A stretch of 63,408 nt of DNA, filler included, from Globobulimina sp. (GCA_003354225.1; 28 parts of 28 records of this genome joined end to end with filler, not necessarily neighbours in it), one strand, 5' to 3'; positions 4,541 through 44,834 are shown, counted from the first letter of the whole stretch. Made by a program: numbers and translations. Notes: generated by a model not told the origin, from the letters alone.

Positions 4541-6345
4541 GATTTAATATCAATATCACTGTTCATGCCATCAACTGCAATTCTGATAATTTTAAATTTC
4601 GTATATTTGCGTGTTTGTAAATGCCTGAATATATTCTCCAAGATATATATTTTCAATTTGATTCTCCATCGGAAATATATATATTCAACATTTGGAAATA
4701 ATACATTCATTAACTCCAAATTGATCCATTCATAATCGTTCTGATAAAATAACTTGTTAACCCAATCCATTTTATTTTTAATTATATCTAAATCCAACCA
4801 TAATTCCTTCTGATTTTCAAAATATTGATTTATTAATTTATGAGCATACTGATCCAGTGCCTCAAATGTCGAATACTTTAATTTTAATCCATTGTCATTC
4901 AATTGTTGGCAAAGACATTTATACGCAATTTTATTATCTGCATCGCACAATGTGTGTTGCAACAATTTATTTCCTGCAAATATATAATTAAATAAATGTA
5001 ACGATTTAATAATGGTTTGATATCCTGTTCCTTCAGAAACACTTACAATGTCTTTAAATAATAACGGCGCCTCACAAGCAATGAACAAACATTCTTGTTC
5101 GTTGGCATAACATGACAGCCAATGCATTGCGAAATATTTAGCAGAGGAATAGATAGAATTCGTGTCGCATAATTCGACGATTAAACCTTTTTTATTTGCA
5201 AAACATGCAGCAACGGAATAATTAGTTGACGTCGACAGTGGACCTGAAAAATATGCAAACGAAGCGGATAAAAAGACAGTTTCTTCAGAGACGCCGTGAT
5301 AAAATACTTGGTTGACATCATTTATTCTGTTACCAAAATAATGCACTGCTTCAACAATATACTTACCCAAATGATAAAACTTACTGTGTCTTTTAGCTAA
5401 TTGCTGGTTACTTTCTTTTGTAGATTGCCGTCTGTACGTTTTACTGAACTCATATTGCAATTTGTCATAATTACAATAGAACATAAGTGCCAATAAATGA
5501 TTAATTTCCAATTCATGTTTAATATCTCCATCTAATGTCTCGTTATATAATCTGTTGCATTTTGAAACAAATGCTTTACAGTAAAATGAATTAAAATGCA
5601 ATTCTGCTTTTTTGTATTGATGGGTCCATTGATTTACACTAATATCTGCCAGTTTGCTTAGAGCGATGATTTCGTGTTTGAAAGTACTGTGTTTCATTGG
5701 TACGTATCTTATGTAATTATGTTTGCCTTTGTTTGCATTATAATCGCCATTCAAATCATATTCGAAACGAACGCCATAGGAATACATTAAAGTTCCTTCG
5801 TCGTTTTTAAGTTTGTGTTTCTCGGTCGTTTTAACGGATATTTTATCTGTGAACTTGCTATTATTTGTCGAGTCTGTTTCAGCATTCACTATTTCCTGAT
5901 ATACCTCATGCGGTTTGCATGTTTGTTCTGTTGTTAATGATCTGAATCTAAAGCCAATATCAAAAGTATGGTTGAAATAACAATGAATTGTATCTAATAT
6001 TTGCATGCAAGTCATTTGATGCGTGTTATCTTCCAAATCCATATCCATTTTGTCATCAGATTCAAAGTAGAATGTATTATTTGGATTCCTTCTCTGTCCA
6101 TAATGTCGATTAAAAATATAACAGAGTCTTATATCACAATATCCAAATGAATCAGCAATAAATTCAAACTCTGGTAATGTGTTATGTTTATGTAATAAAT
6201 GTAAAAAATCATCTAATATTAACTGTATATCCACACAATTAATATCAAAATAATATTCAACGTAATTGACCATGACCCTCTTTAACCGCTGCACTGATTT
6301 GCATTGCTCCGCCAATCCATGGCCACAACATTCATGATAAACCAT
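4541..6345 (-). CDS. Family X protein: His/Cys-rich N-module plus ADP-ribosyltransferase-like core, 3'-truncated
   Basis: Long ORF with FYHG...GPLSTS...LSCYANEQECLF. Paralogous to 22874-24861 and 43176-44834. Confidence 0.75.
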
Positions 6346-6598
6346 CGGGACATCATTGCAGCACTATTTTTTATTGTACTTGTCACACAACAATAATTTA
6401 AGGGAAAATAATATAACATAACATGTTCAAATTGATGCAGTACTGTATTAGCGTGTTCCCAACTGTGTGGTCTGTTGATAGAACGCATTGTTTCTCAAAG
6501 AAATGTAAATTAATGAAAAAAGTTTTGTGTAGTTTAGTAAAAGTACAGCTTTGTTTTGTTCCTTCAATTCTTCACCTTGTTCAATCCAATTAAGTGTA

Positions 6599-6710
6599 AT
6601 GTCTCGACAACACAGTAGGTGCAGACAGAATGATTCATTGAATAATGAGTCATCACAAGAAGAATTAGAGAAATTATTTAGTGCCATTATGCAATGGCGA
6701 GATACATATG
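6599..6710 (+). CDS. 5' end of a hypothetical gene
   Basis: ATG 6599, MSRQHSRCRQNDSLNNESSQEELEKLF..., open to the contig edge. Confidence 0.35.
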
Positions 6711-6825
6711 NNNNNNNNNNNNNNNNNNNNNNNNNNNNNNNNNNNNNNNNNNNNTTAATTAATTAANNNNNNNNNNNNNNNNNNNNNNNNNNNNNNNNNN
6801 NNNNNNNNNNCGACCACGTCAATCA

Positions 6826-8187: not shown

Positions 8188-8309
8188 CCAAATTAAACGC
8201 CGTATTTTGGAGGAGTAAGATATTTATCGCTTGGCAAATATTTTCAAATTAAAAAATCTTTTACTTATAAATTTCTGTTAAAACTAAAATTATAAATACT
8301 TTACACTGA

Positions 8310-8941
8310 TCAATATTTCTTTGTAGTTCCTCTTAAATCAGGATACGAAGGCGATATATAATCATTGCTTGGATCAATAATAATATACTCCTGTGGCTGA
8401 ATAGGTCTTTCCTCCAAAAATGCTTCCAATATACTTTTAGTGCCAGCACCATATCTCGCTTGGGCATCCAACGTAGTGCCACTGACATGCGGCGTCATTC
8501 CATGTCTCGGCATCAATCGCCATGGATGAGTCCTTGGCGCCGGCTGTGGGAACCACACATCACCGGCATAGCCACCAATATGTCCACTGTCCACCGCTTC
8601 CGCCAAAGCATTTTCGTCCACAAGTTTGCCTCTCGCCGTATTCACAATAAACGCACCGGGTTTGCATTTCTCTAAAAATTTCCTATCGACCATATATTCC
8701 GTGCCTCCGTGCAACGGGCAATTCAATGTAATAACATCCAAATTCGGTATCATTTCCTCCACAGAGTCGTAATATTTGCATCCCAATTCCTTCTCTTGCT
8801 GTGTACTCAATCTATGAATGTCATAATAACTCAATTCCACATCGAATGGCTTCAACCGCTGCATCACGCGATAACCAATACGGCCCGCTGCGATTGTACC
8901 CACTGCTTTGCCTTCGAGGTCCCATGACCGATCGGCAATTG
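8310..8941 (-). CDS. fdh: NAD-dependent formate dehydrogenase, last exon
   Basis: DLEGKAVGTIAAGRIG, NTARG, YAGDVWFPQPAP and HPWR..P.HGMTPHVSGTTLDAQARY. A splice acceptor (ttctag) lies at 8942-8943. Confidence 0.93.
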
Positions 8942-9080
8942 CTAGAAATTTCATATTGTATTAGATTATATGCATAAATANNNNNNNNNNNNNNNNNNNN
9001 NNNNNNNNNNNNNNNNNNNNNNNNTTAATTAATTAANNNNNNNNNNNNNNNNNNNNNNNNNNNNNNNNNNNNNNNNNNNN

Positions 9081-9990
9081 GGATATGGTTGTGGGCAATT
9101 CCTTGATGATCATCTTTGGATATTTGTATTGCATCTTTACAGAGGACACAATTTTAGTCAATGTCGATGCAGATATCTCAATTTGAGCTGAAGTTATATC
9201 CAAACCAACTTCTGTTATTTTGATCTGCGGTGCTTGCAACTGTTTGGATTTCAAATGTCCACTTTGACGCTGTCCAGGCATAGGACCCTGACCACGACCA
9301 CCACGTCGAGAGGAATATCTATTATACGCAGAAGTTGCCGATGAAGAATCAATAAATCCATTCACAACGTACACACGCTGCGGGAATTCGTTATAACGCA
9401 CAATATCATTGACAATCAAACATTTAATGCCATGATATCGAAAGGGACAATCAAAAAATGAATGTCTGCCAAAACATTCCCGACAACGATGTTTCAACTG
9501 ACAAATCCCATTGAACATATTTGGATTTATGCGCACATTGTTGCTGATATTATCATCCATTAAATGCAAATGATTATCATTCTTGCCATACTTTGCAGGA
9601 CATCCACTCGGTGTATTATACAGCACACAAATCTCTGTAATCGACACCGTTTCGTCCTTTTCTACCGATTTAGCCATAAACGACGTCGGTATGGTCATAG
9701 ACGGCGGAGGGGTTATACTGTCCCTTTTCTTTGACACTGCAATATGCGGAATATGCGGAATATGACCATGTTGTTTCTTATGTTGTGTGCGAGTGTTGCC
9801 ATGATTAAAAGTGCCATTTTCTTCATCTTTTAGGCGTAAATGTTCATATTGTCCAATGGGATTTAAATTTTGTAAATCTCGGATCTTTGTATGTGCTAAG
9901 TTCAAAGATTTACGTTTATTCATTTCAACTTCGCGATGAAACTTCCATTGGCATTGAAACGAATGTCGCATCGGATGGTGGCCGCGGCAA
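9081..9990 (-). CDS. Hypothetical protein with Cys/His (zinc-finger-like) clusters, internal fragment
   Basis: Open ~300 aa frame with CQLKHRCRECFGRHSFFDCPF and an upstream CRGHHPMRHSFQC. It breaks at the apparent junction near 9990. Confidence 0.55.
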
Positions 9991-10262
9991 AATAAACAAA
10001 TATGGCGATCAAATTGGTGGCATTGCCTTAGAAGCCATTCGTAATGTAGATCCTAAGGATAATTTTTTGGAAGTTATAAGAGAGGAGGCAACTAAGTTAA
10101 ATGTACCATTAATTGTTGATGAAGTATCAAGTGGATTCAGGTTAAATACTGGTGGTGCTCATCTTGTTTTGGGACTAGAACCCGATGTTGCTGTATTTGC
10201 AAAAGGCATTAGTAATGGATATCCGATGGGAGTTATTATAGGGAAAGAAAAATTTATGGATC
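9990..10262 (+). other. Internal fragment of a class-III PLP aminotransferase (GSA-aminomutase-like, bacterial type)
   Basis: IALEAIRN...LIVDEVSSGFR...GAHLVLGLEPDVAVFAKGISNGYPMGVIIGK, including the PLP lysine. Both termini are missing. Confidence 0.8.
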
Positions 10263-11350: not shown

Positions 11351-12819
11351 GCCGTTAATATCAATGTTATCAACAAACTCAATCGGTCGCCCATCTCATC
11401 CGCACTCAAACTAAAACCAGTCAGCGCCAACACGCTGATACAAAACATCATTAATAAGACACTAAAAAAAAATACTTTCCATCTCCGTTTCACTTTTAAT
11501 CGCAACACAATCATTGCGTACGACGACTTACTTCGCGATGCAAAGGGGTCTGCATCGCCAAACTCAAGTATTGCAGTCTCCAAATCCCATTCATCGATCA
11601 CGGAATACCGAGGGTCAATGGAACCAAAATTTGGTTTACGTAGTTCGGGCAAAAATACACAGCGAACACCGCCGGTGGTTCGTTCATGAATAATACACGA
11701 CAAATCTTGACAGTCAAAGGGGAAACTTTGTAATTCCAACTCTTCGGCGAATGTCATTTCGCATTCTTTTTTTACCCGAAGAAATCGCGCCTGTTCACAA
11801 TCAAATTGTCCCTCTGCCACTTTCTCGCCTTTATCTTTTGCAAAATCTTTGAATTGCTGCACACGAAAATACCCCTCTTCAGGATATAACTCCCATTCAT
11901 TGCGATGCTCTTCAATCATATTTTGAAACTCTAAATGTGGATACCATTTTGGCTCCCAATCGGCTAAAATCTGCGGATTATTCTGAGATTCTGCTTCTTT
12001 TTTGGCTCGATAATGGTCCTTATAATCCGCTTCTGTTGGCAGCCAATTAAAGTACATATGAAACCGCATACGAAATGTCTCCGCAATGTTATCCACATCC
12101 GACACTCGTTTCACTTTTAAGGCGACAAATACTTTTCGTGGTGGAATGTTTACTTTTTTCGATTTTAAAGACTCATTCATCTCATTGTAATCGTTTGGAT
12201 ATTCTTCCATGGGAAACCATAACGTTTCCTGTTTGCCATCATAATGTGTAATCTCTCGCAATTCTAAGTCGCCCAAAGTAATGTTGTATTTCCATTTGGG
12301 ATCGACTTTATTTAAATAGGATAGATCAGCGCGTTTTGTGTGTGTTTTTGTGGGTATTCCTTGGTCGCGATCATAGAGTCTTGCGATGACTTTAGATTCA
12401 ACAACAATGTCATCCACATCTAGGCTATGAATAATCCGCTCGACTTTTTCAACACGTTTCTCTTTGTCAATAGTGCCAGGCTGTGCATGTAGTTTGGGTG
12501 CTGTTGCTGAATAATGTGGGCCATATTCTTTACGCGTATCCTCGAGATCCTCTGTATTGGCACGATCAATTTCCCCATCGTCGGTATCTTCTGTGTTCAC
12601 ACGATCGATGTGTAGTTGATATTTTTCTTCTTCTTCTTCTGGTTCTAACAAATTTGAAAATTTTTCAGTTTGACTTTTTATTTTTGGTATTGTTTCGGTT
12701 GTGTCTTCTTCTTCAATTGCAACTTCTTCTGTTGTTTCTTCAACAGTATCCGTGGGCTTCACGGGTTTTGATTCTGGTGATGTTGTTTGTATTTTAACAT
12801 AATCACCGTTGTCTGCCAT
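11351..12819 (-). CDS. Pentameric ligand-gated ion channel subunit (Cys-less / Pro-loop type), 3'-truncated
   Basis: VSDVDNIAETF, WYPHLEFQN, LQSFPFDCQDL, DEWDL, LKVKRRWK + TM1 and DRLSLLITLILT (TM2). Confidence 0.85.
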
Positions 12820-12951
12820 GCAAGGCTGCAGCGTTTTTAGTTTGAAAAAGGATTTTCTTACTTTTCTGACTTAGAAATGATTATACGACAAATTTTCTAA
12901 TAAAAAAGGAAATTTTAGAAATAATTTTCAAATATAATCTAATATTTTGAA

Positions 12952-15888: not shown

Positions 15889-17725
15889 GTTGTTTATAAT
15901 CGATGATAATCATGAAATTACTCCGTTTTTTGAAAATATGACTGGAGAACAATGGAATGAATTTATGCAGAAAATATTAAATAATCCCATTGCAAGCACA
16001 AATAATATGAATGAGATGGATAATATGGATAATATTGATAATATTTGTTATGATAACGAGATAACAGACAGTATGGAAGTTTTTGATTCAATGTCTTATA
16101 TTCAACCAAACAATAATAATAATAAAAATAATAATAATTTGTCATTGTTAGCAGTACCAGAAAATGATAATATTTGTGCGATACCACCCATACCGCCAAT
16201 ACCACCGTTACCAACATCGGCATTTCCACACTTATTATCTCGATCCAATTCATTATGTCCAAGTACTTCCATTTCAGCAGAATCCCCATTTATGTTATAT
16301 GCACACAATCAAATGATGAATAATACGCAAATGGACGCAATCACTGCTTTAACTGCGACGAATATAACCAACTCAAACAACTCCAATAATCATTCCAATC
16401 CAGTCAATTATCATGAAAATGAAGTAAAGAATCAATTGCAAAGTAATCAAAATGCTGAAAATGAAAAGAAATTTAAATGGATTTCCGCAATAAATGTAGT
16501 TCAACCGCAAGAAATGCAGTTAGATTCAATGAATATTGCATCATTGCCTCCATTAGAAGTTGCAAAGGAAGGCGAGGCGCCATATTCGCCACCAATGCCT
16601 TGTCGTATTCGTGCTATTCCCATTGAAAAACCAAGACGTGAAATACTTGAAATTGATGATGATGAAGAAAATGATTATGATTATGACGATGGTGATGGTC
16701 ACTATGATGATGAGGATGATGGAGATGGCGATGTTGAGATGGCTATAAAAATTAAAACAGAATATGAAGATGTTCCGTTGTTATTTCTTTGTCAAACCAT
16801 TGATGAAAAAGAAAAAGGTGAGCAAAGAGAGAATAATTTACAGTGTGAATCCACCCAAAACAATACGAATAATAATGAAAATAACAACAATTCGTCAAAT
16901 AATTATGGGAATTCATTCACAAACTATAGAAATTCATCACATTCATCAAATTTATATAATAATAATTCTAATAATTTTTGTTATGGCCCAAATAATTTAA
17001 ATCCTTTTTATTATCCTCATGATAATGGTGGGGATCACCATCCTCATAATAATTCATTGAATAATTCATTATTTGATTGGATTGATCCAGAATTACTAAA
17101 TTCCAATCCATTCCGAGCCGGAACCAGAGCTACAACGGCCACTGCAACAATGCCAGGAATGATTATTCCTTTCCATGGCCATCGTGATTCGCTAAAACCA
17201 GTTCTAAACAGCAATCGTATACGGCGTCAATCGACATCATCCGCCGAATGTGCTTACGGTGAACCTTCCCAATCTCCCATTAGTTGCGTAAATGTCTTTC
17301 ATCTCCGAAAATGTTCAACGAATATCGAGCCAAATGCTAGACTGACTTTTTATGCTATACCATGAGATTAAAAGTTTTGTATATAGTTAGTTTAGTATTT
17401 GTTTCTGAATTTATACATAGACATTATACGAATGGGAGGCACGCCGGCAATGAATGGAGGTCTCGGTTTTGTTGACAATGGATTTAATTATAATGTGTTG
17501 AATATGAATATGAATATTCATCTGGATATAGATATTAATTTAAATGCACAAATGCAAGACAATGATGCATTGGTATCAGTATCAATGGATACAATCGATA
17601 CAATTAATAAAGATGAGGAAGAAGAAGAAAATGGCCAAGAAACAGATGATGATCGAACAATGATTGGAGGAAACTTAAATCAAAGAAGACGCATTTCAAC
17701 CAATCCGCATACAAATAGGAGTTGA
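15889..17725 (+). CDS. Low-complexity Asn/Asp-rich hypothetical protein, 5'-truncated; the 3' structure after 17365 is uncertain
   Basis: A 491-aa ORF plus a similar-composition ORF after a possible acceptor (catag, ~17420). Confidence 0.5.
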
Positions 17726-20425: not shown

Positions 20426-22593
20426 ATATGGCGTATGATTATAGAACAAAACTCGAACCATCAAATTGGGGATAAAGACGATGAAAACTGCGATATGTTG
20501 AACGAATTACAAAATATATTCACTTACCTGCAAGAGTCAGATTTGCGGAGTTATGATCCGAGCTCATTTTGCTATGCTTATAAACAGCCCGGCGGCCGGC
20601 CGATGGAGTTACGCGTTCAGATGGATGTGGATGAATTCTTTAACATTTTCACGGATAAATTGGAGAAACAATTACAATTTGATTCGCATAACAATATCAT
20701 TCAATATTTATTTGGCGGCGTATTTGCCACACAAATGATTGGAAGGAAGGATTGCAAGCATTACCGGGAGAAATCCGATCCATTTGTCACGCTAACATTA
20801 GATGTAAAATCTAAGACTGACATAACACAGAGCTTGAACTCCTATGTCCAGGGCGAAGTTATTAGCGATTATCAATGTGATAAATGCAATAAACGCATAG
20901 AAATATTGAAGCGATCATGCATACGGATATTGCCACGGAATTTAGTGATTCATTTGAAACGATTTGATTTTGATATCGAAACGTTAGGCCGTGCCAAAGT
21001 GAATGATATGTTGCGGTTCCCTCCGTATTTGGACATGACTGCGTTTACGAAGGACGGGCTGGAGAATAAGGAACAGAAACGGTATAAAGTGGATGATAAT
21101 GACTTAACGGAGCTGGAGAAAAAAGATCGCGATGTCAATGAACAGAAATATAATGAAACGTATGATTTTAGCTCGAGTAATATGTACAGATTGGTGGGGA
21201 TTATTAACCATTCCGGCGGCACGGAGTCCGGTCATTACACGTCGTATATACGGGAACATAAGAATAGTCACAATGATGGTTTGGGCGAGTTACACCATAA
21301 ATGGTCGTTTGCGAATGATCGCATTCTGAAGGACTGGGAATGTAAGAAAATACAGGATGACTGTTTTGGAGGTCCCCTGCCATATATCCATGCAACCACT
21401 ACGACTGTGACAAATAATACCAGTACGGGGGCGAGTAACAGCAATAATAACTCTGCATCGAACAGCAATAATGGCGGCAATGCCAGTACAGGCACTACGA
21501 CCACCACTACATATTCACAGCCGGCGAATAAAATGTACAGTGCTTATATGTTATTTTATGAACGAGTCTCGGTGGAGGAACAGCAACTGATTAGCAGCAA
21601 AATGCAGAATGGTGCGTTGAGTAAATCGTATTATGATTTGGCAGAGACATTGTTGAAGAATGCAGTGGGTAATAACCACTCCGTTACGCCGCAGGTACAG
21701 GTTGGTGGCAGTAATCATAATGGCCGCCATGGCAAATTAAGTGGACAAAAACGGCATGCTCGCAGTTTCGAGCCTGCATTGGAACCACCACATAAAAAAC
21801 AGAAAATATCGCACGACACTGACACGGATACGGACACTAAAAGTAATATGGATTTTGACGCCGAGGCCACTGCAGCTGAAATATCACGCGATTGTCTGAA
21901 TAAAACTGATCCAAAAGAATTGCCCAAATATTTATCCAAAGCGCAACAATCAATGATATTGGATGCAGCTAAAAAAGAGCGGGTTTGGAATGAAAATAAA
22001 GCTGCGATGATTGAGCGACAGTTGTTGCAGAAACGTTATATTGCAACGTGTTTACACACAGTTTTGTTATCCGTACCAAAGGAAAATGAAACAGTGGATG
22101 AAAATGAACTATTCAATGCGTGTAAGTTAGCGCTGACATTGCTATTTGAGAGCATTGGACATTGCAAGAATTTGAACCAGATAATCTCACGGAAACAGCG
22201 CAATAATATGTGCAAGATATTAGCAGCTTCGCCGTTGGGATGTAAATGGTTTTTACAGAAGTTATTAGCCATAAAAGATAACCATTGGTTGCGCACATTA
22301 TACGATCCCAAATTGAATCATATTTATGGCGAAACTATGGGTGAAGTTGTGCGTGATTTTGTGATTACTGCGTTGAAATGTGTCCGTGCTGAGGAGTGTA
22401 GATATTATAAGTATGTGTTGCAGCTAATGAACAGCGATGAGGATGACATGGAGATTGATATTGATGTGGATATCGGTCGACATTTAATTGTCAAACTAAT
22501 CAAATTGATACTGTCCCAATTTACCTGTATGGATAAAGCAGATTACGCCCATCCTATCTTTGAGATTTTAATGCATTTTGCTCATTTTGGCAA
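20426..22593 (+). CDS. Ubiquitin-specific protease (USP9X/24/34-like), internal fragment
   Basis: QMDVDEFF, YQCDKC, LVIHLKRFDFD, His box NHSGGTESGHYTSY and AYMLFYER. Confidence 0.9.
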
Positions 22594-22873: not shown

Positions 22874-24861
22874 TCAGTTTGTATTTGTAAATAGCCAATT
22901 TCCTTCAGTTTGTATTTGAAACAACCAATTAAACCTCGCAAATTTAGTTACATTTTGCTCAAATAAATTCTCAACAAAGTCAACATAATATTTATTATTT
23001 TCATCCCCAAACAATTGTATTTTATTTAATTTTTGCCCACAATTTATGTCATGATTTTTATCATTCAATATCTGTATTAATTGCAACAAGTTATTACACA
23101 AAAACACATTCAAATCTATATGGTTAATTTCAATATGTTCAACATTTGGAAATAACATGACTGTGTTTATAAAATTAAATGAATGTAATCCCTCTTTTTC
23201 AATTAAAAAATATTGGATTAATTCTTTAATTGTAATATGCTTTAAAAAGCTTTTAATATTCAATCTCAATTTGGTTTTATTTTCCCAATAATGATAACAT
23301 AGTTTCTGCCCAAATTCTAATTTCATAAAATCATTGACTCCGTCATTTTTCTTTATATATGACAATGTATTGCTAATTATCTGCGATAAATAGGTCTGAT
23401 AATTTATATTCTCCTCGTAATTGAAGGATAGTTTATGTCCAATGATCGCATCCATAATGTACATGGCATTGAAATATATCTCATTGTCATAATTATTGAT
23501 GATAATATTGCGGATTTCTAAATGCTGTGAAGGTCCTAATAATATCTCATTTTCATACGGATAATCTGACAACAATGACACGTCAAAATATAATGAGCCT
23601 AATCGCTTTGCGCCAATCACGACCATTATGTCATCATTTTTGCATTCCGAATCACAAAAAGTTATTTGGTCCGAAGTGAGCGAGTATGTACATTCAATAT
23701 AAAAACTTAAATCATTGATTAACAATTTCTGATAATTACCATTGAATTTACAAATAAATTCACAATTTGCTTCAATCGGATCACCAAAATTATCAATCAC
23801 TGAAAATAACATTTTACTGAAATGCCAAAACGATTCGCAATGCGATTTGCGTAATAATTCCATAGCGTTATCATTCAAATTATGACAATGCAAAGTGGAA
23901 CAAAACGCGCGTTGTAAGTCTATGAAATTTGTATAACACATAATGGCAATGATTTGTTGTAAATTTATTTTCTTCCCAAAGAAAATCACCATTTGCTGTC
24001 CAATGAATGTCCGTTGGAATATCTTTGCGCGATATGTAGTATCGGTATATTGATGAATGGATATACCACCAACCAATTTATTATTAATTAACTCGTCTTT
24101 CATAGCGGTGAAAGCCGGCGTAAACGTGCGATCTTTATAACTTATCAACACACCAAAGGATTCCCCATCGTATTCAAATAATTCACCACTGTCATTATTG
24201 CCGATATTCAGTGTAAATTTGTTAGTTTGGCTGCGATTTCGTTGCTTGATTTTAAATTCATTCATATTTTGCTGATCATATTGATTGGCATACATTAAAT
24301 ATGGTTCCTGCGACGAATGAAATATAAAACAATGCAACATGTCACATATTTGCAGCGTTATTATCTCATTGATCTCATACTCACTCAATCCATCATCAGC
24401 CGCCTCATCCGCATTGCCATTGATTTTGAACCATTCCCTCCGTTTTGATAACAACTTACATTGATTTTTAGGTCGATGATATCTGCTATAAATGGTACAA
24501 TGTCGCTTGTGTCCATGTCCATTGCCCGCGGCATCATACACACAATAATTCTCTTCAAAATGTGTGCGACAAAACTCGTACCAACGATTAAAATGTCCGT
24601 GATAGAAACGACAGTGATAAAAATCGTCAATCATACCATGTAAGTCAAATTGTAACTCGTTTCTGAGCACATAATACATGGATATGAACGCATTATTTCT
24701 CTCTGAAATGTCCCACAACGAATGTTGTCGGTCATACATTATGCTTTGATATATTTTCAATATCATTAACAATCTCTGTGTACAGTCACAACTTTCTATC
24801 TTTGCGCATAAAGTCATGCATTGCTCCACGATCTCATTATTGCCAATGGATTGATACGCAT
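22874..24861 (-). CDS. Family X protein (degenerate ART-like core), 5'-truncated
   Basis: DDFYHC..H, DMLHCFIFH, IIAIMCYTN, YFDVSLLSDYPYENEILL, LFPNVEHI and ARFNW. It lacks YHG and STS. Confidence 0.7.
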
Positions 24862-27593: not shown

Positions 27594-29066
27594 TCAAGTT
27601 AACATCATTTCAGTCTGTTGTTCCGGTGGTTGGTATCCTCCACTTGATCCAACACAACACCATCCGCAACAATTATCCTTTCCAATTTTAGAATTCCTTG
27701 CATCGATAACATCTGCCATTTTAGCAACATATTGATCACTTGTAACATTCACAGCTGTTTCAATTCTATCCACCAACCAATCCAATACAAATAAAGTCGC
27801 AATCCCTTCGCCTGCATATTCTCCAATGCCCGCCGCTTCAAACAACATTGTTAAATATACCATTCCCACATTAGGAATTGGTGCAGTACCAATTGAAATA
27901 ATCACAGACAGCACGCAAACAACAATGATTTTGCTAAAATCCAACGATATTCCATTCAACTGGGCAATCAAAGCAATCATAATTGGAAAACCAAGAGCAG
28001 TGCCGTCCATATTTATAGCCGCCCCCAATGGAATTATAAAAGAATAAACCTCCTCTCGAATACCAGCTTGTTCCGCAACCTGTAAAGAGCGTGGCAATGT
28101 AGCCGCAGATGACGAGGTAGCAAATGCTAGCAATGGAGCTGGGAAAATTTGAACATAAAATTTATAAGGATTCAGCCGTGTGGTCAACCAAAATAATACT
28201 GGATAAAAGACAAATGTATGTATACTATGACCAACCACCACACACAATAAATAAAAACCTAATGCTGACAGCAAACGTAATAAATCCACAGTGCCTGCTA
28301 TTTTCAATGTGATTAACGATAACATTCCAATCGGTGTAAACCTGACAGAAACACAATTATTTAATACTTTTATTGCGTAAACAGTTATAAGTCACACACC
28401 ATACAATCCAGACAATTGCCAACATACAGCACCTCAAAATGGCATTGGACGCTAATAACACAGTATTACGCTCATCCTTTTTAATGTTTTTATGCCTGAG
28501 TAATATTCCAATGCCTAAGAAGAACACAATGACGCCCAACACAGTTAAATCAGCCATCGCTTTTATTATATTTGGTGGTACGGCATTGTACAACACACCA
28601 AATATAGCATCCGTGATTAATATGTCGCCGCTTCCGGAGCCTGCAGTGCCAATGAAATCCGTCCCCTGGCCCTGTTTGCCGAGATTGCCAGGTTGAATGA
28701 CCCAGGCCCTTTGTTGTGGTATTCAGTTATTTGAATGCAGTATAAATTGATTCCAAAATGATTCGTGTTGTCTTTACAAATAACATACCATATTGTTCCC
28801 TGTATAGCAGCGCAAGTAGATGTTAATAAGTATAATGGAATTGCAATTTTTCCAATAGGTCCAATGTTATCCACCCTCGAAGGCAATACTAACATCATCA
28901 TGGTCACAAGCGGTAATACTAATAATTTCAGTGCAGAGATCCATAATTTACCAGGGAACTCGACCACTGCCAAAGCGTATTTGTTTAAATGTGAATATGG
29001 CTGTTCTTTTGTGATGTTTCTTTCCTCTGTGTAATACAGAACAAATTCGCCATTTATTATCTTCAT
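27594..29066 (-). CDS. SLC1 dicarboxylate/amino acid:cation symporter; introns 28709-28788 and 28342-28399; N-terminus probably missing
   Basis: FPGKLWISALKLLVLPL, AFATSSSAATLP, AINMDGTAL and DWLVDRIETAVNVTSD. Confidence 0.9.
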
Positions 29067-29497: not shown

Positions 29498-31624
29498 GAA
29501 ATTGATAACAATTCAAAGGATTTAATAATAATTAATAATTTATTACGTTTGTGTTGTTTAAGTAAAGAGCCAGATAAAGCATTAAAAGTATGGCAAGATA
29601 TTAAAAAGTATGAAAAAGAAAAGAAACACTTTAATGATTTTGTGACATCACATTTTTTATTATTACAATGTTGCATAAAATCACGCAAACATAACATGGA
29701 TATGTATTGTATTGATATTTTAAAATATTTAGTATCAAAAACGAGAAAAATGGAATTGAAATTACATGGAAATATTATAAATAAATTAATTAAGAAATGC
29801 AATAATAATTTATCCTCATTACAATATATACATTCATTAATTGATAATAAATATTTTATTGGTGACATGGATATAATTAAAACAGCATTGATCAATGCGT
29901 ATGGTGACTGTTCAGATTGTTTGGATTGTCTTGCTTCAATTTCATTATTTGAATCGATAAATAATTCAAATGATATTATAACAATTGGCTGTATGATGAA
30001 GCTGTTTGTTAAGAATCTATGCTATAAACAAGCATTACAATTATATGATAAAACAAATGACAATAATAATAACAATGCCATTACAAATGTGTTAGCGCTT
30101 AAAGCATGTAAAGGTATTGGTATTACATATTATGATAAAGGTATTCAAATTATACAAGAAAGTTTAATAAAATATCCATTTGATATGTTTATAAAAACAT
30201 CAATTATCGATTTTTATGGGACATTTGATGATATGGAAAATTGTAAAAAAATATTTAAGAGTATTCCTGACAATAAAAAAACAATAGCAATTATTAATTG
30301 CTATTTGAATGTCTTGATTGATCACAATGAGAATGAATATGCATTAGAGATCTATGATAAGTATGCATTGCATTTACATAATGGAATAACAGATCTTTTG
30401 ACAATAAAAGCTTGTAAGAACAGTAATAATTTGGAAAAAGGAGTTAAAATTCATTCACAGTGTGGTAATATTAAAAAGAATATTAAATTAATGAATGGAC
30501 TGATAGATTTTTATGGACATTTTGGTTTAATATGTAAAGCATATTTGATATTTGATTCAATTTCAGATGCAATGAGAGATAATGTATGCATTAGTACAAT
30601 GATGAATGTGTGTATTAATAACAACGAATGTAATGATGCAGTGCGTATATATAAATACAATCAATATTGTAATTCTAATTTGATTGATTCGTTATGTCAT
30701 TTATTCGCAATCAAAGCATGCAGCCATGGTCATTGTGGTGATTATAAAACAGGGCATGATATTATTCAATCCATTAATAATAATAATAATAATATTGATT
30801 TAGTCAATACAATAATACATTTTTATGGCAGTTTTAATGAAATAAAGAAAGCACACGAATGTTTTAAAGCGATTGCAAACAATTTTAAAAATGTGCAAAC
30901 AATTACAGTGATGATGGAAGCATTTTGTAAAAGTGATTGTAATATTGAATGTATCCAACTATTTAATAATATAAATAGAGATTATGCGCAATTTAATAGT
31001 AGATTTTCGGAGAATGTATGGTGTAATATCGCTATTAAAGCATGTACACACGGTACAATGTTGTATGTTGGACAGGAAATACATTCAAATATAACAGAAT
31101 TGCATGCTTATGATATCGATAAAAGTGTACAAATTAACCTAATTAACATGTATGCTAAATGTGGTCGATTAGATATTGCAGAAAATATATTTAACGATAT
31201 CGACATAAATAATAAGGATGTTGAGATTTACAATGCAATGATTCATGGATACGGCAGAAATGGTCAATTAACAAAAGCAATGAAATTATTTGAAAATAAA
31301 TTATTTGAACCAGACAGGAAAACATTTATATTAATTATTAATGCATGTAGCCACTGTGGTGATTATGAGCAAGCAAAATATATTTGGGATGTACTAATTT
31401 GCGATGAAGACATTAAAAAAGATATTTATGTAATGACTGCTTTTATTGATTGTATTTCAAGGAAAGGTCACTTAAAGGAAGCTAAACAAATTATCATTAA
31501 TAATAATTTAAATGAAGAGGTTGCTTGGACTGCTTTGTTAAGTGGATGCACAAAACATAACAATCAAATGACAACTCAAGTATTGGATGAAATGAATCAA
31601 CGATTTAGAGCAAATGTAACATGA
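29498..31624 (+). CDS. Pentatricopeptide repeat (PPR) protein, 5'-truncated
   Basis: Repeats such as LINMYAKCGRLDIAENIF, YNAMIHGYGRNG, TFILIINACSHCG and WTALLSGC. Confidence 0.9.
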   Translation, partial: EIDNNSKDLIIINNLLRLCCLSKEPDKALKVWQDIKKYEKEKKHFNDFVTSHFLLLQCCIKSRKHNMDMYCIDILKYLVSKTRKMELKLHGNIINKLIKKCNNNLSSLQYIHSLIDNKYFIGDMDIIKTALINAYGDCSDCLDCLASISLFESINNSNDIITIGCMMKLFVKNLCYKQALQLYDKTNDNNNNNAITNVLALKACKGIGITYYDKGIQIIQESLIKYPFDMFIKTSIIDFYGTFDDMENCKKIFKSIPDNKKTIAIINCYLNVLIDHNENEYALEIYDKYALHLHNGITDLLTIKACKNSNNLEKGVKIHSQCGNIKKNIKLMNGLIDFYGHFGLICKAYLIFDSISDAMRDNVCISTMMNVCINNNECNDAVRIYKYNQYCNSNLIDSLCHLFAIKACSHGHCGDYKTGHDIIQSINNNNNNIDLVNTIIHFYGSFNEIKKAHECFKAIANNFKNVQTITVMMEAFCKSDCNIECIQLFNNINRDYAQFNSRFSENVWCNIAIKACTHGTMLYVGQEIHSNITELHAYDIDKSVQINLINMYAKCGRLDIAENIFNDIDINNKDVEIYNAMIHGYGRNGQLTKAMKLFENKLFEPDRKTFILIINACSHCGDYEQAKYIWDVLICDEDIKKDIYVMTAFIDCISRKGHLKEAKQIIINNNLNEEVAWTALLSGCTKHNNQMTTQVLDEMNQRFRANVT

Positions 31625-36590: not shown

Positions 36591-38469
36591 TTATATGAAT
36601 TCAATGGTTTTTGGTAATCGTATTAGTTGATATTCATAAACATATTCCAATATAACTCCACCGACATCACGTCCAAAAGAATCCAATACCATAAATTTAA
36701 CATGATTATTTCCAACATATTCTTCCAACGTTTTGTAATATACTTTCAATATTTGTGCAATAATCAAAGCAGCAGAAACCAAATATAATGCATATGACAC
36801 AAGCCATGCATGGCCATCGACAAACACATCGCCAATAATTGCAGGACCAAACAAAGCAATAATTCTAGTAACAGTAAACAAACAGAACTGGATATTTGTA
36901 TTATGTCCACCGATCGCTATCGTTGTTAACTTGGCAATGAATGATTTATTCTGTTTAGCATTCCGAGCAATATTATTAACGCATCTCACCAATCTGCAAC
37001 CCTCTGACAAACAAAATATACTAAAAAATACAAAAAACAATATACTAAATCCTGCAAATGTTTGGTTATACACACATGTCATTGACATGCCATCCGTTGG
37101 TGAAATAGCTTCACCTCCTTCCAGTGCACTGCAATAATAGTCATCGTCACATAACGCTTGCATCGCATCGGATGAATATGGATATTTAGAGCCACAATAC
37201 GTGTTCAAATCATTGATACTTTTTGCAAATGCAATCAGTATATAAACACTAGTAACAAACACCATACATTCTATCATTGCAATATATACCACAAAGAAAG
37301 CTGGAGGTGTTGCTGTCAAATTATATAAACGATATTTCCCTGTCAATCTATAATAACTTGACAATTTTATTGTTACAAATATCATCATAATGACTGAAAA
37401 CACTGCAATTACCACACCACATAGAAATAACGGCGAATTTGGCGCTACATCCAACACAAAACATTCATCATAGTCATCTTCAAACAAAAACATAGTTTCA
37501 TCGCAGCAGGCATTATCCAGACATTTACCAGCGCGAAACTGTGAATATCCGCTATAGTCATCACCACAGTAAAAATCCATACTGCTACACAACAGATTAT
37601 TGTCGCCAGCACATAACTCGCAGGTATCCATTAAAGCAGTAATTGAGTTATTTGTAGAATGTGAATAAACGGATAGATCAACACAGGAGTATGGCCCAAT
37701 GCATTCCATCCAGGTCTCCTGCGACACCCACAATGCGCTGGACATACATGTTTGCATCGCATCGGTATATCCACCGCTACACACAAATGATAACTCATTT
37801 GAATTTGTTGCACGAATAAGTGCCGAGTTCAGAGCGCCGTTACTTGCTGTTGCTGATATAAACAATGCATCGGTTGCTTCGACTAATACATTATCGCACG
37901 CTTCTCCTCCATTACAATTAATTATTACATTTTGTGAGAAGTTTGCCATAATGGTGGCATATTTACAACTGGCATGACCCAAACAATTAATAGTGATATT
38001 CTCGACGTTTGGTGCTTTGATTTGTAGAAACGTGCAACTATGATCTCCCGCACAATCCAGTACTATGTTATCTGTCGAGTTGCCTGTAATCACTGCGTCT
38101 TTGCAACTGTTTTCCATCTGGCAGTTAACCACACAGTCACCATCCGGACAAAAAATAAGAGCTCCTGTATATATATACAAATACAATGCATAACAAAACC
38201 GGATACAAAATGGAAAACAGTTTTTCCGGCATAAATATGAACCATGTTTGGCGGTTCTTGAATGAAGACAATTATGCATTAACCTTCACAATTATGATAG
38301 CGATCGGGATCGGTACAATCAATGTAATTTGCTTGTTGAAGATAATTGCCATTGCAATCATTTGTATCATTGCATTTGATCATACATTGTTTATTGCCAT
38401 TGTCATCTATAAATGTTGAGTTGCATGTAAGCTCTGTAAAGATGGCATTGGAACCTTGTAAACAGAAAA
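36591..38469 (-). CDS. Cys-rich ectodomain multi-pass membrane protein, 5'-truncated; intron 38165-38283
   Basis: Repeated I.C.G..SC units, then about 5-6 TM helices. Splicing gives HNCE|GALIFCP. Confidence 0.75.
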
Positions 38470-38569
38470 NNNNNNNNNNNNNNNNNNNNNNNNNNNNNNN
38501 NNNNNNNNNNNNNTTAATTAATTAANNNNNNNNNNNNNNNNNNNNNNNNNNNNNNNNNNNNNNNNNNNN

Positions 38570-39087: not shown

Positions 39088-39206
39088 TGGAATAACATCA
39101 TCAATATCAGAATTAGTATTCGTGCAATCCTGGCAATCCGTAGAAAGTGTCAGTGTAAAATAGTGACTAAAGCTGACTTACTTTTTTTTTTTGCTTAAAT
39201 CTGAAT

Positions 39207-40031: not shown

Positions 40032-40107
40032 TATTGCAGTTTGTTTTTAGTTCGGATTTTTGATCGGAACTCTTTTAGACTTGAGCAATACAGCTGAACA
40101 ATTCAGA

Positions 40108-40737: not shown

Positions 40738-40912
40738 NNNNNNNNNNNNNNNNNNNNNNNNNNNNNNNNNNNNNNNNNNNNTTAATTAATTAANNNNNNN
40801 NNNNNNNNNNNNNNNNNNNNNNNNNNNNNNNNNNNNNTGGGATTAAATTAAATTATTTAAGAATTAATTCTTTTACTCACACAAACAGTGCAAATATTGC
40901 TATTCGCGCCAT

Positions 40913-41965
40913 TCAAATATTGCTAATTCTTTTACTCACTCGATCGATATTCTTTAAAATGAGTTTTCTTTCCATCAAATTTAATCCCACCAATCGTAAA
41001 AGTGAATCATTTCTTAAATAATTTAATTTAATCCCACCAATTGCCTCAATTAATTTTGTATTATTATTAAATTGTCCGTTTTCAATTAACTTGATCCATT
41101 CGATAATATCATTTGAATTCCATTTCGAATATTTATTCTCGTATTTTCTTAATTCATTTTGAACACAATCAAATAAAATAAGAGCATGATTTGTTTCTAA
41201 ATCTTTTTGAATTGTATTTATTTTATTTTTTAAGGAAATAGATTCTGTTTTAAAATCGGTGTTTGATTTTTTAACGATTTCTAATTCCTTTTTCTTTGCA
41301 ATTCTGGACTGATTTGTTTTGTTTTTCTGTTGTTGTAAATCAACAATCAATTGTTGATAATGATAAATTTTTGTATTTAACTTAAATAAACATTCATCAA
41401 TTTCAAATACATCTTTTTGTGCAGCCTCAATATTAAGCTCTACACTTTGTTGTTGCATTGCATTATTTGTAAATATATCATTTAAACAATTTAATTTATC
41501 ATTATTAAGATTACACATTTGTTTATTATAATTATTTTCAATTTCATTATGTATGATATTTAAATCAGAAATAGAGCTCGAACGCAAAATCTTAGTTACA
41601 AATCCATTTTTTAATCCATGTATTAATGTATCAATTTGGTTAATTTTCGTCATTGTTTGCTCATTAGACACAGAAACCGGAAATGAGGCAAAATTACCAC
41701 ATGTTGCATTTAATGTGGATTCCCTTCCAATATGATAAGATTTAACTGTTTTATATGGATATAACATTCTTGATTCGTATGAAAACGTAATTAATTTTGC
41801 TGAAACACCGATTTTTAAGGACAATTTATTTGCAATATCACCAACATAATCATCAACACAAACATTTAATGTAAATGTTTTAAATTGTCTGCCTGTTACA
41901 ATTCGTACAAAAACCTGGAATTGTTTACAAGAGTCATACATTTCAATGTCCTTTTGTTGAGCCAT
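40913..41965 (-). CDS. Ubiquitin-like + coiled-coil + SAM-like protein
   Basis: QVFVRIVTGR..TFTLNV...SYHIGRESTL (Ubl), a heptad region, and WNSNDIIEWI...LRLVGL..MERKLIL (SAM-like). Confidence 0.7.
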   Translation of the reverse strand: MAQQKDIEMYDSCKQFQVFVRIVTGRQFKTFTLNVCVDDYVGDIANKLSLKIGVSAKLITFSYESRMLYPYKTVKSYHIGRESTLNATCGNFASFPVSVSNEQTMTKINQIDTLIHGLKNGFVTKILRSSSISDLNIIHNEIENNYNKQMCNLNNDKLNCLNDIFTNNAMQQQSVELNIEAAQKDVFEIDECLFKLNTKIYHYQQLIVDLQQQKNKTNQSRIAKKKELEIVKKSNTDFKTESISLKNKINTIQKDLETNHALILFDCVQNELRKYENKYSKWNSNDIIEWIKLIENGQFNNNTKLIEAIGGIKLNYLRNDSLLRLVGLNLMERKLILKNIDRVSKRISNI

Positions 41966-42312
41966 GATTCTCTGTCACAGAAAATCTTAAATCTTTTCTT
42001 CAAAACGTTAAAGTGGAGGATATTTAGGACACACGTCACGGATGTTGGATTGACGGAGGAACGGATAGATCGAAATTAAAGATACAATCATGTACATAAT
42101 TGCATAACTACAGCTACATGACCACTACTAGTACATGTGTCATGTTTAGCTCTGTAAGAAAAATGAAATTAAACGATCATTGAACATGTTCACGTAGAAA
42201 AAGTACTGGATCTGTCAACATATTCTTTGTGGTCGTTTTATTGCTGACATTATGGTAGTAATACGATACAAAAATGTCAAATATGTAGCTTCAAATGCAT
42301 ATATTGCTGACA

Positions 42313-42949
42313 TTATTTTCCTATAAAATCTGCAACAATCTTTTGTGCCCTATTTACATATTTTTGTCTTTGTTCTCTGTTCATTTGTTTCCAATTAATT
42401 GCCAATTGATTACATATTTGAATCTCAGACATTGAGCAATTATTTTTCATCATTTCCACTCTTTCTCCTTTACAAAAGCATTGAAATGCAGTAAATATTC
42501 GCTTTTGTTTTTCCTTTTCTGCATTCAATTGAGGTAAACGTATAACAGATTCATCATTATCATCATTACACTTATCATCATCATCAATATCAATATCCTC
42601 ATCAGAATCAGAATCATTGTGATCCAACAAATCAGCATCAAAATACTTATACTTTCTATTGCCTTTAACTGTGTAGACAGTGCAATGTGTTATAATTAGT
42701 GCAAGGATTTGAAATGAATGAAATCAAACTTGATGGATGTTGCGCTACAATCTCTTTTAAGCGTTGTTCGTGTTCGTGTTCGTGTGTTATGTTACTGGTC
42801 ATATCATGTTTGGTTATATCGTCTGAATTATTATTCGGATTTGAACCAATTAAATGAGGATCAATCCGTAATAATGGCGCAGCATTATTGGGATATGATC
42901 GATACATAATATTAGTACTATCTTTATTGGACAATAATTCATTCTTATA
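42313..42949 (-). CDS. HMG-box protein, last two exons; intron 42663-42729
   Basis: KRIFTAFQCFCKGER...EIQICNQLAINWKQMNREQRQKY. Confidence 0.75.
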
Positions 42950-43175
42950 CTGATGTTCGCGGATATGAATAGTGACAAAACATTTTGCAAAGCGAATATA
43001 TAATGNNNNNNNNNNNNNNNNNNNNNNNNNNNNNNNNNNNNNNNNNNNNTTAATTAATTAANNNNNNNNNNNNNNNNNNNNNNNNNNNNNNNNNNNNNNN
43101 NNNNNAAGATATATTAATATACTGTTCATAAAATAACAATATCATAACATTGATATGTATATATTCTATACATAG

Positions 43176-44834
43176 TTGAATGAAACAAATAATAGATATC
43201 CATATTTGATCAGACAGTTTTTATCAGAATTAACCAAACAAAAACGATATCAATTATTGGATGATTTTGACCATATATTACAACACGAAACGTCTATTGC
43301 AAAATGTGCAAAGAGTGAGGAATGTATTCATTTACAAAGAGTTGAAAAAGCCGCAGATATTCACCAAACACTTGAAGAAAAACGAGATTTATTTAATTCA
43401 AATGACTGGAAAGACCATGTATATATTTCTTATTTAGATAAAATACATTGCAGCATTTTACATTCGGCATCGAATATTTCCATTCAATCGGATAAGGAGA
43501 CCATTGATAGGTATTCAAAATTTAAAGTTTACTCAACTGGCGTTTATATCGACCACGCATCGCTATCATCATTGCATGTTAATTTGAAGCAAGAGTTGAT
43601 AAACAACGCAGTTTGTAAAATTAAAGAATCGCAGTTTTGCGACGCAGTAGAAACCGCAAAAAATATCTCTGAAAAAATGGAAGGAGCACAAAAAATGGAA
43701 GCAAAGGAAACCAATGAAATATATGGAATTAAGATTGGTGATCCAATATCCATTGAACATATATTAGTGATATATTTATATTGTTCAAACTCTGAATTAT
43801 GTAAAACATTCCGCGAATCGTACCGAGCGTCGGAATTTGACGACAATAATCAAAATATTCGAGCATATCATATCAATAACTTTTATTGGATGGGTCGATT
43901 TATATTCGCAGCCATTCAATTTTTTGGTGAAAAGCCTGGAACGGGAAAAAAAGACATATTTTATCACGGTCAGAGAAATAAATTTTTGTTTACTGAATTT
44001 TCGACTGTTTTAGAAACGCCAACCTCCACAACCTCTGATTGGAAGATAGCACAGACATATTTTGCTGGCGATAACGGCATTGTGCTGAAGTTGGGAGCCA
44101 AATTTAAAAATGAATTGAATAATAATAAATATTTGAATGTGTCATCAATTTCAAATTATGGGAATGAAGATGAGCGGTTATTTGCTGGTATGACGGTATT
44201 GGCTGTGGTTGACATCGCATTTACAAATGGAAAACATTTCTGTTGGTTAGGAAAATGGGCATTGGCCTTTCTTTATTTTGAGCGCATTGTGGAGCAAACT
44301 ATACATAATAAAGATTATTATAATTATGGATTTATATCAAAGGAACAACAAAGAAAGTATTTATTGCCATTAGTTCAACACCAAATGGATAGAAATGCAA
44401 TTGGCAGAAATGGGGATAATAAAATAATTCCGCGTAACAGCTATAAATTTGATATTAAAAAAAATGATGTCAAGCAACAAAGGCGACCATCGTGGAAACA
44501 ATCGAGTTTTGATCACGAAATGAAAAGCAATGGTACCAATGGCTTGGATGGAATCAATGAGGGTTTGGTTGCGGTGTCGGGCGGTGTGGATGAAAAATTA
44601 AAGGAAAAGGAATATTTATATGCATTATTTGAACATTTTTGTGATTCGAAACGGGATTATATTAATTTAACGTGTATTAATGATGAAAGACAAACAATGC
44701 ATAAGTTATTACGCGATATTTTGTTTACAAATAATAATAATAATGCCTTTGAAATTAATAGTCAATCAATAAAGTTAATATTTCCAAAATTAAAAGGATA
44801 CAAAAATCATTTGGGATATTGGGTTGCAATTTGA
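43176..44834 (+). CDS. Family X protein with ART-like core, last exon (acceptor catag at 43171-43175)
   Basis: LLDDFDHILQH, LDKIHCSILH, EHILVIYLYC, FYHG, TPTSTTS, GIVLKL and ISNYGNEDERLF. Confidence 0.75.
   Translation: MNETNNRYPYLIRQFLSELTKQKRYQLLDDFDHILQHETSIAKCAKSEECIHLQRVEKAADIHQTLEEKRDLFNSNDWKDHVYISYLDKIHCSILHSASNISIQSDKETIDRYSKFKVYSTGVYIDHASLSSLHVNLKQELINNAVCKIKESQFCDAVETAKNISEKMEGAQKMEAKETNEIYGIKIGDPISIEHILVIYLYCSNSELCKTFRESYRASEFDDNNQNIRAYHINNFYWMGRFIFAAIQFFGEKPGTGKKDIFYHGQRNKFLFTEFSTVLETPTSTTSDWKIAQTYFAGDNGIVLKLGAKFKNELNNNKYLNVSSISNYGNEDERLFAGMTVLAVVDIAFTNGKHFCWLGKWALAFLYFERIVEQTIHNKDYYNYGFISKEQQRKYLLPLVQHQMDRNAIGRNGDNKIIPRNSYKFDIKKNDVKQQRRPSWKQSSFDHEMKSNGTNGLDGINEGLVAVSGGVDEKLKEKEYLYALFEHFCDSKRDYINLTCINDERQTMHKLLRDILFTNNNNNAFEINSQSIKLIFPKLKGYKNHLGYWVAI

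Follow-up and report, generated by a model that had tools for sequence, protein, structure and literature searches.

A large foraminiferal protein family with a predicted ADP-ribosyltransferase fold and a His-Ser-Glu-x-Glu signature

Three open reading frames (ORFs) on unlinked contigs of Globobulimina sp. (GCA_003354225.1) encode proteins in which motifs resembling those of ADP-ribosyltransferases (ARTs) follow one another in the usual order, with a histidine at the place where many of these enzymes carry an arginine. This raises the question of whether the proteins adopt the ART fold, whether an active site of such mixed composition can use nicotinamide adenine dinucleotide (NAD+), and what the proteins do in the cell. 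We examined the three genes, which lie between positions 4541 and 44834 of a window of 63,408 bases (the whole stretch of DNA analysed here), together with their relatives. Taking the evidence as a whole, we lean towards divergent, probably active NAD-dependent mono-ARTs in a foraminiferal family with a possible link to the ubiquitin system, with one likely inactive copy among the three.

The three genes and the parts of their products are laid out as follows:

4541..6363, minus strand: paralogue 1 (P0001), exon 2, whose frame is open from 6363, the intron boundary, and includes an ATG at 6345
5866..6345, minus strand: N-terminal, all-helical, Cys/His-rich module of P0001 (residues 1-160)
5023..5790, minus strand: predicted ART-fold core of P0001 (residues 186-441), with the codons of H350 at 5296-5298, S371 at 5233-5235, E416 at 5098-5100 and E418 at 5092-5094
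4543..5019, minus strand: C-terminal alpha/beta module of P0001 (residues 443-601), shortened by the contig end
43176..44834, plus strand: paralogue 2 (P0003), 552 codons plus stop
43524..44258, plus strand: predicted ART-fold core of P0003 (residues 117-361), with Y-H-G, S-T-T and E-D-E all present
22874..24861, minus strand: paralogue 3 (P0002), 661 residues, an intact ORF whose 5' end is open at the contig end
23486..24178, minus strand: predicted ART-fold core of P0002 (residues 228-458), with F-N-G for Y-H-G, S-L-T for S-T-S, and E-N-E present

Read from 4541-6345 on the minus strand, P0001 has 601 residues and leaves the contig at 4541, with about the last 40 residues missing; the C-terminus of P0003 is short and divergent. 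All coordinates and motifs that a first-pass annotation had given for colinear paralogues on three unlinked contigs were recovered, with FYHG at 5293-5304, LSTS at 5227-5238 and NEQECLF at 5083-5103 in P0001, FYHG at 43959-43970, TSTT at 44022-44033 and NEDERLF at 44163-44183 in P0003, and KFNG, YSLTS and YENEILL at the aligned places in P0002. BLASTP matched P0001 to P0003 with an E-value of 3e-16 and 28% identity across a 160-residue core, P0003 to P0002 with 5e-13, and P0001 to P0002 with 5e-8 over 581 residues. Pairwise identity among the three cores is 20-25%, and the three ORFs are divergent paralogues with a similarity far above chance. P0002 had been called degenerate, which fits the change of Tyr-His to Phe-Asn and of the threonine of S-T-S to leucine but not the rest of the protein, in which the full architecture, the first serine of S-T-S, Gly351 and both glutamates are retained.

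The fold of the core was the check that the first-pass annotation had named for its proposal. A model of the P0001 core (predicted local distance difference test, pLDDT, 87.6; predicted template modelling score, pTM, 0.88) gave eight Foldseek matches in the PDB at E<=0.001, all of which were ARTs of the Arg-Ser-Glu (R-S-E) class (rat ART2.2, XopAI and ExoS), with HopU1, Vis, C3, Tre1 and Certhrax next in rank. VIA re-alignment was best for ART2.2 (Z 13.4, root-mean-square deviation 3.5, 193 aligned residues, covering 1-257 of the 270 residues of the model), followed by XopAI (11.6), ExoS (11.3), HopU1 (11.1), Tre1 (11.0) and the C3 family (about 8). The full-length P0001 model (pLDDT 88.4, pTM 0.90) was compared with 48,161 chains independently of Foldseek; ART2.2 was again at the top (Z 13.2, 195 aligned residues, 185-441 of P0001), and the next ranks were almost all ARTs. 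With top structural matches that are all ARTs and best Z scores of 13.2-13.4, the models place the core with very high confidence in the split beta-sheet ART fold and, by its nearest matches, in the R-S-E class. A different fold, which would have refuted the proposal, was thus not obtained.

At the sequence level, PF01129 (ART) was the sole Pfam family to recur on the core, in 7 of the 159 relatives of the window proteins that we collected (E-values from 1.4e-4 to 4e-3), with scores of 16.9-21.7 bits that all fall under the gathering cut-off of 22.3 and leave the family outside PF01129 by that measure. Of 30 matches in a language-model feature search, 20 carry PF01129 or PF03496. The alignment with the vertebrate ecto-ARTs of PF01129 (rat ART2.2, 1GXY/1OG3), the best structural match, extends over 193-195 residues and includes the N-terminal helical part of the domain, and the two share the motif order of aromatic-X-G-[IV] on beta-1, S-x-S on beta-2 and E-x-E before beta-5. 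The foraminiferal family differs in having histidine for the beta-1 arginine, in having no member that reaches the Pfam gathering score, and in a core that is embedded between a Cys/His helical and an alpha/beta module, often with additional cytosolic or nuclear domains, whereas the ecto-ARTs are short secreted or glycosylphosphatidylinositol-anchored ectoenzymes (PMC7955679).

In both the core and the full-length model, F348-Y-H-G-V352 forms a strand (348-352), L370-S-T-S373 lies on the next conserved strand (370-373) and is followed by a helix, and E416-x-E418 comes after a loop at the start of strand 418-421. As modelled, this is the canonical layout of beta-1, beta-2 and an ADP-ribosylating toxin turn-turn (ARTT) loop that leads into beta-5. 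The window copies were compared with the ART motif definitions in PMC6829252, PMC3102197 and PMC7955679. The [QE]-x-E motif is present as E-x-E in all three copies; according to PMC3102197, it is E-x-E, and not Q-x-E, that marks arginine specificity in R-S-E enzymes. The S-[TS]-[STQ] motif is complete in P0001 (S-T-S) and P0003 (S-T-T) and partly kept in P0002 (S-L-T), while the aromatic-Arg pair that R-S-E enzymes have on beta-1 is replaced by Y-H-G in P0001 and P0003 and by F-N-G in P0002.

The conservation of these positions was counted in a hidden Markov model (HMM) alignment of 162 proteins, namely the three window copies and the 159 relatives, two of which have no core. Position 350 is His in 154 proteins, Arg in three, and Asn, Thr and Asp in one each, with a gap in two. 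The other signature residues are as strongly retained (G351 in 160, S371 in 160, T372 in 158, E416 in 160 and E418 in 159), as are R305 (152) and H320 (158). In the three members with Arg the series of F-Y-R-G, S-T-S and E-x-E is complete, and these members were scattered in a midpoint-rooted FastTree tree of 160 cores, which was computed with no support values. They offer natural evidence, at the level of sequence, that His and Arg may be interchangeable at position 350.

The equivalence of the residues was also examined by profile comparison with hhalign, for which an alignment of 101 family sequences (A3) was set against an alignment (A4) of ten homologues of the arginine-ART effector gene of plasmid pDC3000A (HopO1-like), all of which carry PF03496 and PF01129 and whose family is called NAD+-protein-arginine ADP-ribosyltransferase in named sources. 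The two aligned with an E-value of 0.0014 over 133 columns and paired H350 with R183, S371 with S211, E416/E418 with E247/E249, and Y304-R305 with Y140-R141; all of these partners are invariant in A4. Thus the signature residues and the Tyr-Arg pair of the helical part all have counterparts in the HopO1-like family. The effectors HopU1/HopO1-like, ExoS and Tre1 reach structural Z scores of 10.4-11.3 to the family core; they differ from it in keeping the beta-1 arginine, in being small secreted proteins and in showing about 12-16% sequence identity. The pairing of H350 with R183 and the conservation among the 162 proteins bear out the proposed R-S-E-like motif order with histidine at the beta-1 arginine position. 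In the 48,161-chain search, the first aligned residues would set H350 opposite the beta-1 arginine of heat-labile enterotoxin and pertussis toxin, judging from range ends only, an indication to which we give little weight.

A histidine followed by glycine on beta-1 is also what the H-G-[ST] motif of the poly(ADP-ribose) polymerases (PARPs) looks like, and the His-Tyr-Glu (H-Y-E) enzymes hold the adenosine ribose with a histidine at the same strand position (PMC7955679). The family shares with the PARP and diphtheria-toxin class this beta-1 His-Gly and a glutamate before beta-5, so that the proteins might be read as members of that class instead of as R-S-E derivatives. Range arithmetic on the same structural search would put H350 opposite the start-of-strand histidine of diphtheria toxin, PARP1 and PARP16, to which we likewise give little weight as the aligned ranges are known by their end residues only. 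The beta-2 residue of the family is a serine within S-T-S and not the tyrosine of H-Y-E enzymes; the Z scores were 7.3 for diphtheria toxin (97 aligned residues) and 4.2-4.4 for PARP16, PARP1 and PARP10, compared with 13.2 over 195 residues for ART2.2; the sub-threshold Pfam matches are to PF01129 and never to PARP; and ART2.2, HopU1 and the HopO1-like family can be aligned with the domain throughout its long N-terminal helical part. Membership of the H-Y-E class, contradicted by the beta-2 serine and by structural matches as weak as Z 4.2-7.3, is in our view hardly credible. Lacking the R-S-E arginine and the Pfam threshold score, the proteins are best placed as an H-S-ExE variant within the ART superfamily and outside PF01129, and both the sequences and the models suggest that this domain derives from, and would work like, the R-S-E ARTs.

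The core is only one part of the protein. In A3, in a second alignment of 23 sequences (A1) and in the full-length model, we found a three-part architecture of an N-terminal helical module (about residues 1-160), the core (about 186-441) and a C-terminal alpha/beta module (443-601 and beyond), the last of which is duplicated in some relatives. Eight Cys/His residues are conserved in the N-terminal module (C15, H49, H54, C70, C75, H121, C122 and H126), which suggests up to two zinc sites. Neither flanking module could be assigned to a known family, the best Z scores in the full-length structural search being 5.3 for the N-terminal module, for which there was also no usable language-model atlas match, and 4.3 for the C-terminal one.

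Further domains are attached to this architecture in many relatives. When Pfam was run on all 159 at E<=0.01, matches were obtained to PUB (18 relatives, 2 above the Pfam cut-off), UBA (12, 7 above), PITH (6, all above), and UCH/USP, Skp1_POZ and RING (one relative each, all above), with a weak match to CUE in one relative that was below the cut-off. At least one of these ubiquitin-system domains is found in 35 of the 159 relatives. The other matches were to the RanBP2-type zinc finger (5 relatives, 1 above the cut-off), YEATS (2, both above) and bromodomain (1, above), and there were single occurrences of MYND, CCCH, RhoGEF, ankyrin, Kelch and EGF domains. Together, the accessory domains seem to form a coherent theme of ubiquitin, proteasome and p97, which we regard as a lead.

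Some of these fusions deserve separate mention. P0014 and P0061 end in YEATS domains and one relative has a bromodomain, and part of the family may accordingly read chromatin marks. The relative P0155 is a fusion of a ubiquitin carboxyl-terminal hydrolase (USP) domain to the ART-like architecture. The window, too, has an ORF with a USP domain (20426-22593, plus strand; PF00443, E 1.2e-30), which is on a contig other than those of the ART-like genes. In the Bolivina relative P0078 the ART-like architecture occurs together with pyruvate:ferredoxin oxidoreductase domains and with a RING finger at the C-terminus, a combination that may stem from a chimeric transcript.

On the reading that we favour, the family consists of intracellular multi-domain proteins in which a Cys/His-rich helical module, a divergent ARTC-class domain and an alpha/beta module are combined. 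P0001 and P0003 would most likely be active NAD+-dependent mono-ADP-ribosyltransferases and P0002 an inactive paralogue. In the proposed site, His350 would take over the adenosine-ribose or phosphate contact, Glu418 would carry out catalysis, Glu416 would shift target choice towards acceptors that resemble arginine, and the near-invariant R305, which pairs with an invariant arginine of the bacterial family, might supply a phosphate contact. The enzymes would probably act on or beside the ubiquitin/proteasome/p97 machinery, since relatives are often fused to PUB, UBA, PITH, USP, Skp1 and RING domains. That the site is maintained for catalysis is argued from the fact that exactly the catalytic positions are nearly invariant among paralogues with 20-30% identity and have decayed in P0002. 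From sequences and models we find catalysis by the family somewhat easier to accept than to dismiss.

Several observations weigh against this reading. The main doubt about activity comes from the missing beta-1 arginine, which R-S-E enzymes use for NAD+ binding; the family consensus also has no arginine after S-T-S, where some R-S-E enzymes have an 'aliph-R' motif (PMC6829252). XopAI, with its altered beta-1 motif and no NAD+ binding, illustrates that an ART fold with such a motif can be non-catalytic. None of the three window proteins had a Pfam ART match at E<=10, P0003 giving chance-level matches only, and a PDB sequence search with the family profile returned no match at E<=10, while one with the member P0079 returned a single chance match, to a nanobody (E 1.9). 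The hhalign probability for A3 against A4 was just 17.6%, and a comparison of the family with one HopO1-like sequence had an E-value of 0.099 and a probability of 0.6%, with the stretch from S-T-S to E-x-E alone paired. The 162 proteins consist, apart from the window copies, of the 150 best profile matches and the relatives from the word search, and so represent the most canonical part of the family. The predicted convergence of H350, S371 and E416/E418 on one cleft is drawn from strand positions and alignments only. As to the link with ubiquitin, 16 of the 18 PUB matches are below the Pfam gathering score, the relatives are taken from assembled transcriptomes, in which chimeras can occur, and a ubiquitin-system domain is found in none of the three window copies.

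These doubts lead to the possibility that the core is a non-catalytic ART-fold module which lost its NAD+ chemistry together with the beta-1 arginine, and whose cleft binds an arginine peptide or an ADP-ribosylated protein, as an adaptor of the ubiquitin/proteasome system. XopAI of Xanthomonas is the second-best structural neighbour (Z 11.4-11.6), and according to PMC6829252 its arom-R and STS motifs are altered (the latter to AAS), it does not bind NAD+ and it captures an arginine peptide instead. Both NAD+-phosphate arginines of the R-S-E enzymes are apparently absent from their usual places in the family, and many relatives carry pure binding domains (UBA, PUB and PITH). XopAI and the family (Z 11.3-11.6) do share an altered beta-1 arom-R and a retained E-x-E loop; but XopAI has lost its STS and has Thr at the Arg position (PMC6829252), whereas the family has His there and a near-invariant S-T-S (158-160 of the 162 proteins) along with both glutamates and Tyr-His-Gly. 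The XopAI-like pattern, in which both arom-R and STS are lost and E-x-E is retained, is not seen in P0001 and P0003, where S-T-S or S-T-T is present, and P0002 comes nearest to it. The pattern of conservation is better explained by selection for catalysis than by selection for binding, the arginine at the histidine position in three members suggests that the same job is still done there, and the drifted P0002 changed exactly these residues, which elsewhere are apparently held by selection. A purely binding role is in our judgement unlikely, if the most serious competitor to the reading of active mono-ARTs.

Known enzymes that combine an R-S-E-type domain with ubiquitin are the mART domain of SidE/SdeA and CteC, both of which act on ubiquitin; CteC ADP-ribosylates Thr66 of ubiquitin (PMC10810742). 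SidE gave a Z of 7.1-7.7 to the family, lower than ART2.2, and SidE and CteC are bacterial effectors, in contrast to the endogenous eukaryotic proteins of the Foraminifera. The likeness is an analogy for which the fusions of relatives to UBA, PUB, PITH and USP domains are the sole hint. A far-reaching version of it would be an endogenous, massively diversified H-S-ExE ADP-ribosylation system of Foraminifera that is wired into the ubiquitin/proteasome/p97 machinery as a eukaryotic counterpart of SidE/CteC chemistry, with thousands of paralogues that stand for a diversity of targets and degenerate copies, such as P0002, that serve as regulators or decoys. Such a system might, for example, ADP-ribosylate ubiquitin, ubiquitin chains or their handlers. 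We consider this version speculative and rather doubtful.

The family is very large, as the first-pass annotation had supposed. A word-indexed search with the P0001 core returned 23 relatives with top identities of 60-68%, and a full-library profile search with A1 returned 6450 representatives at E<=0.001, of which 4593 also passed <=1e-10 and 2457 <=1e-30, each representative standing for one cluster at 50% identity; the A1 profile is full-length, so weak matches may cover only a terminal module, while the best 150 matches mostly span nearly the whole profile. With the conservation counts, these numbers describe a divergent family with intact and degenerate members. Among 30 matches that were looked up, 24 were from Bolivina argentea, 3 from Nonionella stella and 3 from metagenome or run assemblies, so that all 27 named ones belong to the Foraminifera, within Rhizaria, in keeping with the lineage-specific distribution that had been suggested. 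A second word-indexed search (101 sequences) returned EukProt entries and unnamed ones only. No relatives were confirmed among 68 pattern matches in a scan of viral contigs or among 110 in a scan of metagenome contigs. As far as tested, the family is probably specific to Foraminifera.

The first-pass annotation had also proposed a role of NAD+-using enzymes in signalling or defence. In this scenario the domain would mainly split or rearrange NAD+, as an NADase or generator of a signal in a diversified, immune-like system, with an arms race behind the size and diversity of the paralogue set. R-S-E enzymes commonly have NADase side activity. This general background, the 6450 representatives, the core identity of 20-25% between paralogues of a single window, and a top match in the language-model feature search (score 0.96) to an unnamed cluster of mostly giant-virus proteins would all agree with the idea. 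However, none of the 159 relatives has a defence-associated domain, the accessory domains are ubiquitin and chromatin readers and not immune modules, and the scan of viral contigs was without a relative. Nor does the neighbourhood help, as each copy takes up almost all of its own contig of about 2.2 kb. The window consists of 28 contigs (and not 27, as had been counted) of 2167-2170 bp in descending order of length, and the spacers between them consist of 44 N, 12 bases free of G+C and another 44 N; the G+C contents of the contigs range from 26 to 42%, and the Pfam families of the long ORFs look eukaryotic. Since the contigs are merely joined and nearly filled by the genes, gene neighbourhood is almost uninformative. 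The suggested defence role is left unsupported by relatives whose domains point to ubiquitin, proteasome and p97, and we find it very unlikely; active mono-ARTs with a ubiquitin link continue to be the reading that we favour.

Phages, bacteria and vertebrates are known to have R-S-ExE ARTs, which a 2010 review described as seemingly lacking in unicellular eukaryotes (PMC3102197). No earlier description of the family was found in full-text searches that combined foraminifera or Reticulomyxa with ADP-ribosyl, or that used H-S-E ART, with the subscription-only literature, including the main surveys of the ART superfamily, outside their scope. A protist lineage may hold one of the largest ART-fold expansions anywhere, and the nearly fixed change from Arg to His lies between the two classical classes of active site. 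Should the proteins be active, a beta-1 histidine can serve an otherwise R-S-E-type site, and the family provides a natural series of His/Arg swaps for studies of NAD+ binding; one would then ask what use giant single-celled organisms have for thousands of these enzymes, a question for which crosstalk with the ubiquitin system is a concrete lead. If they are inactive, the family would be an unusually large one of pseudo-enzymes.

The structure and constraint of the window genes were assessed by comparing the contig of P0001 with assembled contigs of public sequencing runs, of which those of run X3 are about 99% and those of X7 about 95% identical to it. One contig each from X3 and X7, which are from different studies, skips 59 nt between 6363 and 6423, whereas a contig from run X1 is contiguous through this stretch. 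On the gene strand the skipped sequence begins with GT and ends with AG, and it is a spliced intron located 18 nt upstream of the ATG at 6345. The upstream part of the gene is therefore as follows:

6364..6422, minus strand: intron of P0001, 59 nt, GT..AG
6423..6488, minus strand: coding part of exon 1 of paralogue 1, with an in-frame ATG at 6486-6488

The true start of paralogue 1 is probably in exon 1, because the spliced frame stays open up to the ATG at 6486-6488, which adds 28 codons ahead of the ATG at 6345. Judging from the intron-skipping joint only, X3 and X7 would contain RNA-derived contigs, the runs themselves carrying no RNA label. Of the 30 listed differences between the X7 contigs and the P0001 gene, 24 are at third codon positions, and all three indels are of 3 nt. 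P0001 is thus a real, expressed and constrained gene, its expression being read from the intron-skipping joint. The ORF of P0003 has no ATG at its start and lies immediately after ...catag, a possible 3' splice site, for which reason its first exon is probably off the contig. Beyond the intron, the last 125 bases or so of the P0001 contig (6585-6710) have a summed contig word depth of about 2000-3500 in X3 and of 70-315 in X6 and X7, compared with about 15-70 over the P0001 gene; the contig thus seems to end in a repeat of high copy number or in some very abundant sequence.

The family HMM identified two further pieces among the 607 six-frame ORFs of the window:

54043..54340, minus strand: C-terminal module of a fourth family member (E 4.6e-8), the remaining gene lying past the contig end
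27479..27688, plus strand: weak remnant of the E-x-E strand (SDYPQEEERLF; E 1e-4), possibly a decayed family fragment

The fourth gene is convergent with a long ORF of pentatricopeptide repeats (PPR) at 52174-54012 (plus strand, E 6e-34); a second such ORF is located on a different contig, at 29498-31624 (plus strand, E 2e-26). The E-x-E remnant lies just downstream of, and on the opposite strand to, an ORF of the sodium:dicarboxylate symporter family at 27594-28391 (minus strand; PF00375, E 2e-54). Seven ORFs of 324-564 codons had no Pfam match at E<=0.001 and no match to the family HMM:

9081-10052
11351-12870
15890-17365
36591-38285
50062-51627
58976-60340
61375-62997

Finally, a 353-codon ORF at 40913-41974 (minus strand) has a weak ubiquitin-family domain in its N-terminal part (PF00240, E 5e-6, 26.6 bits).

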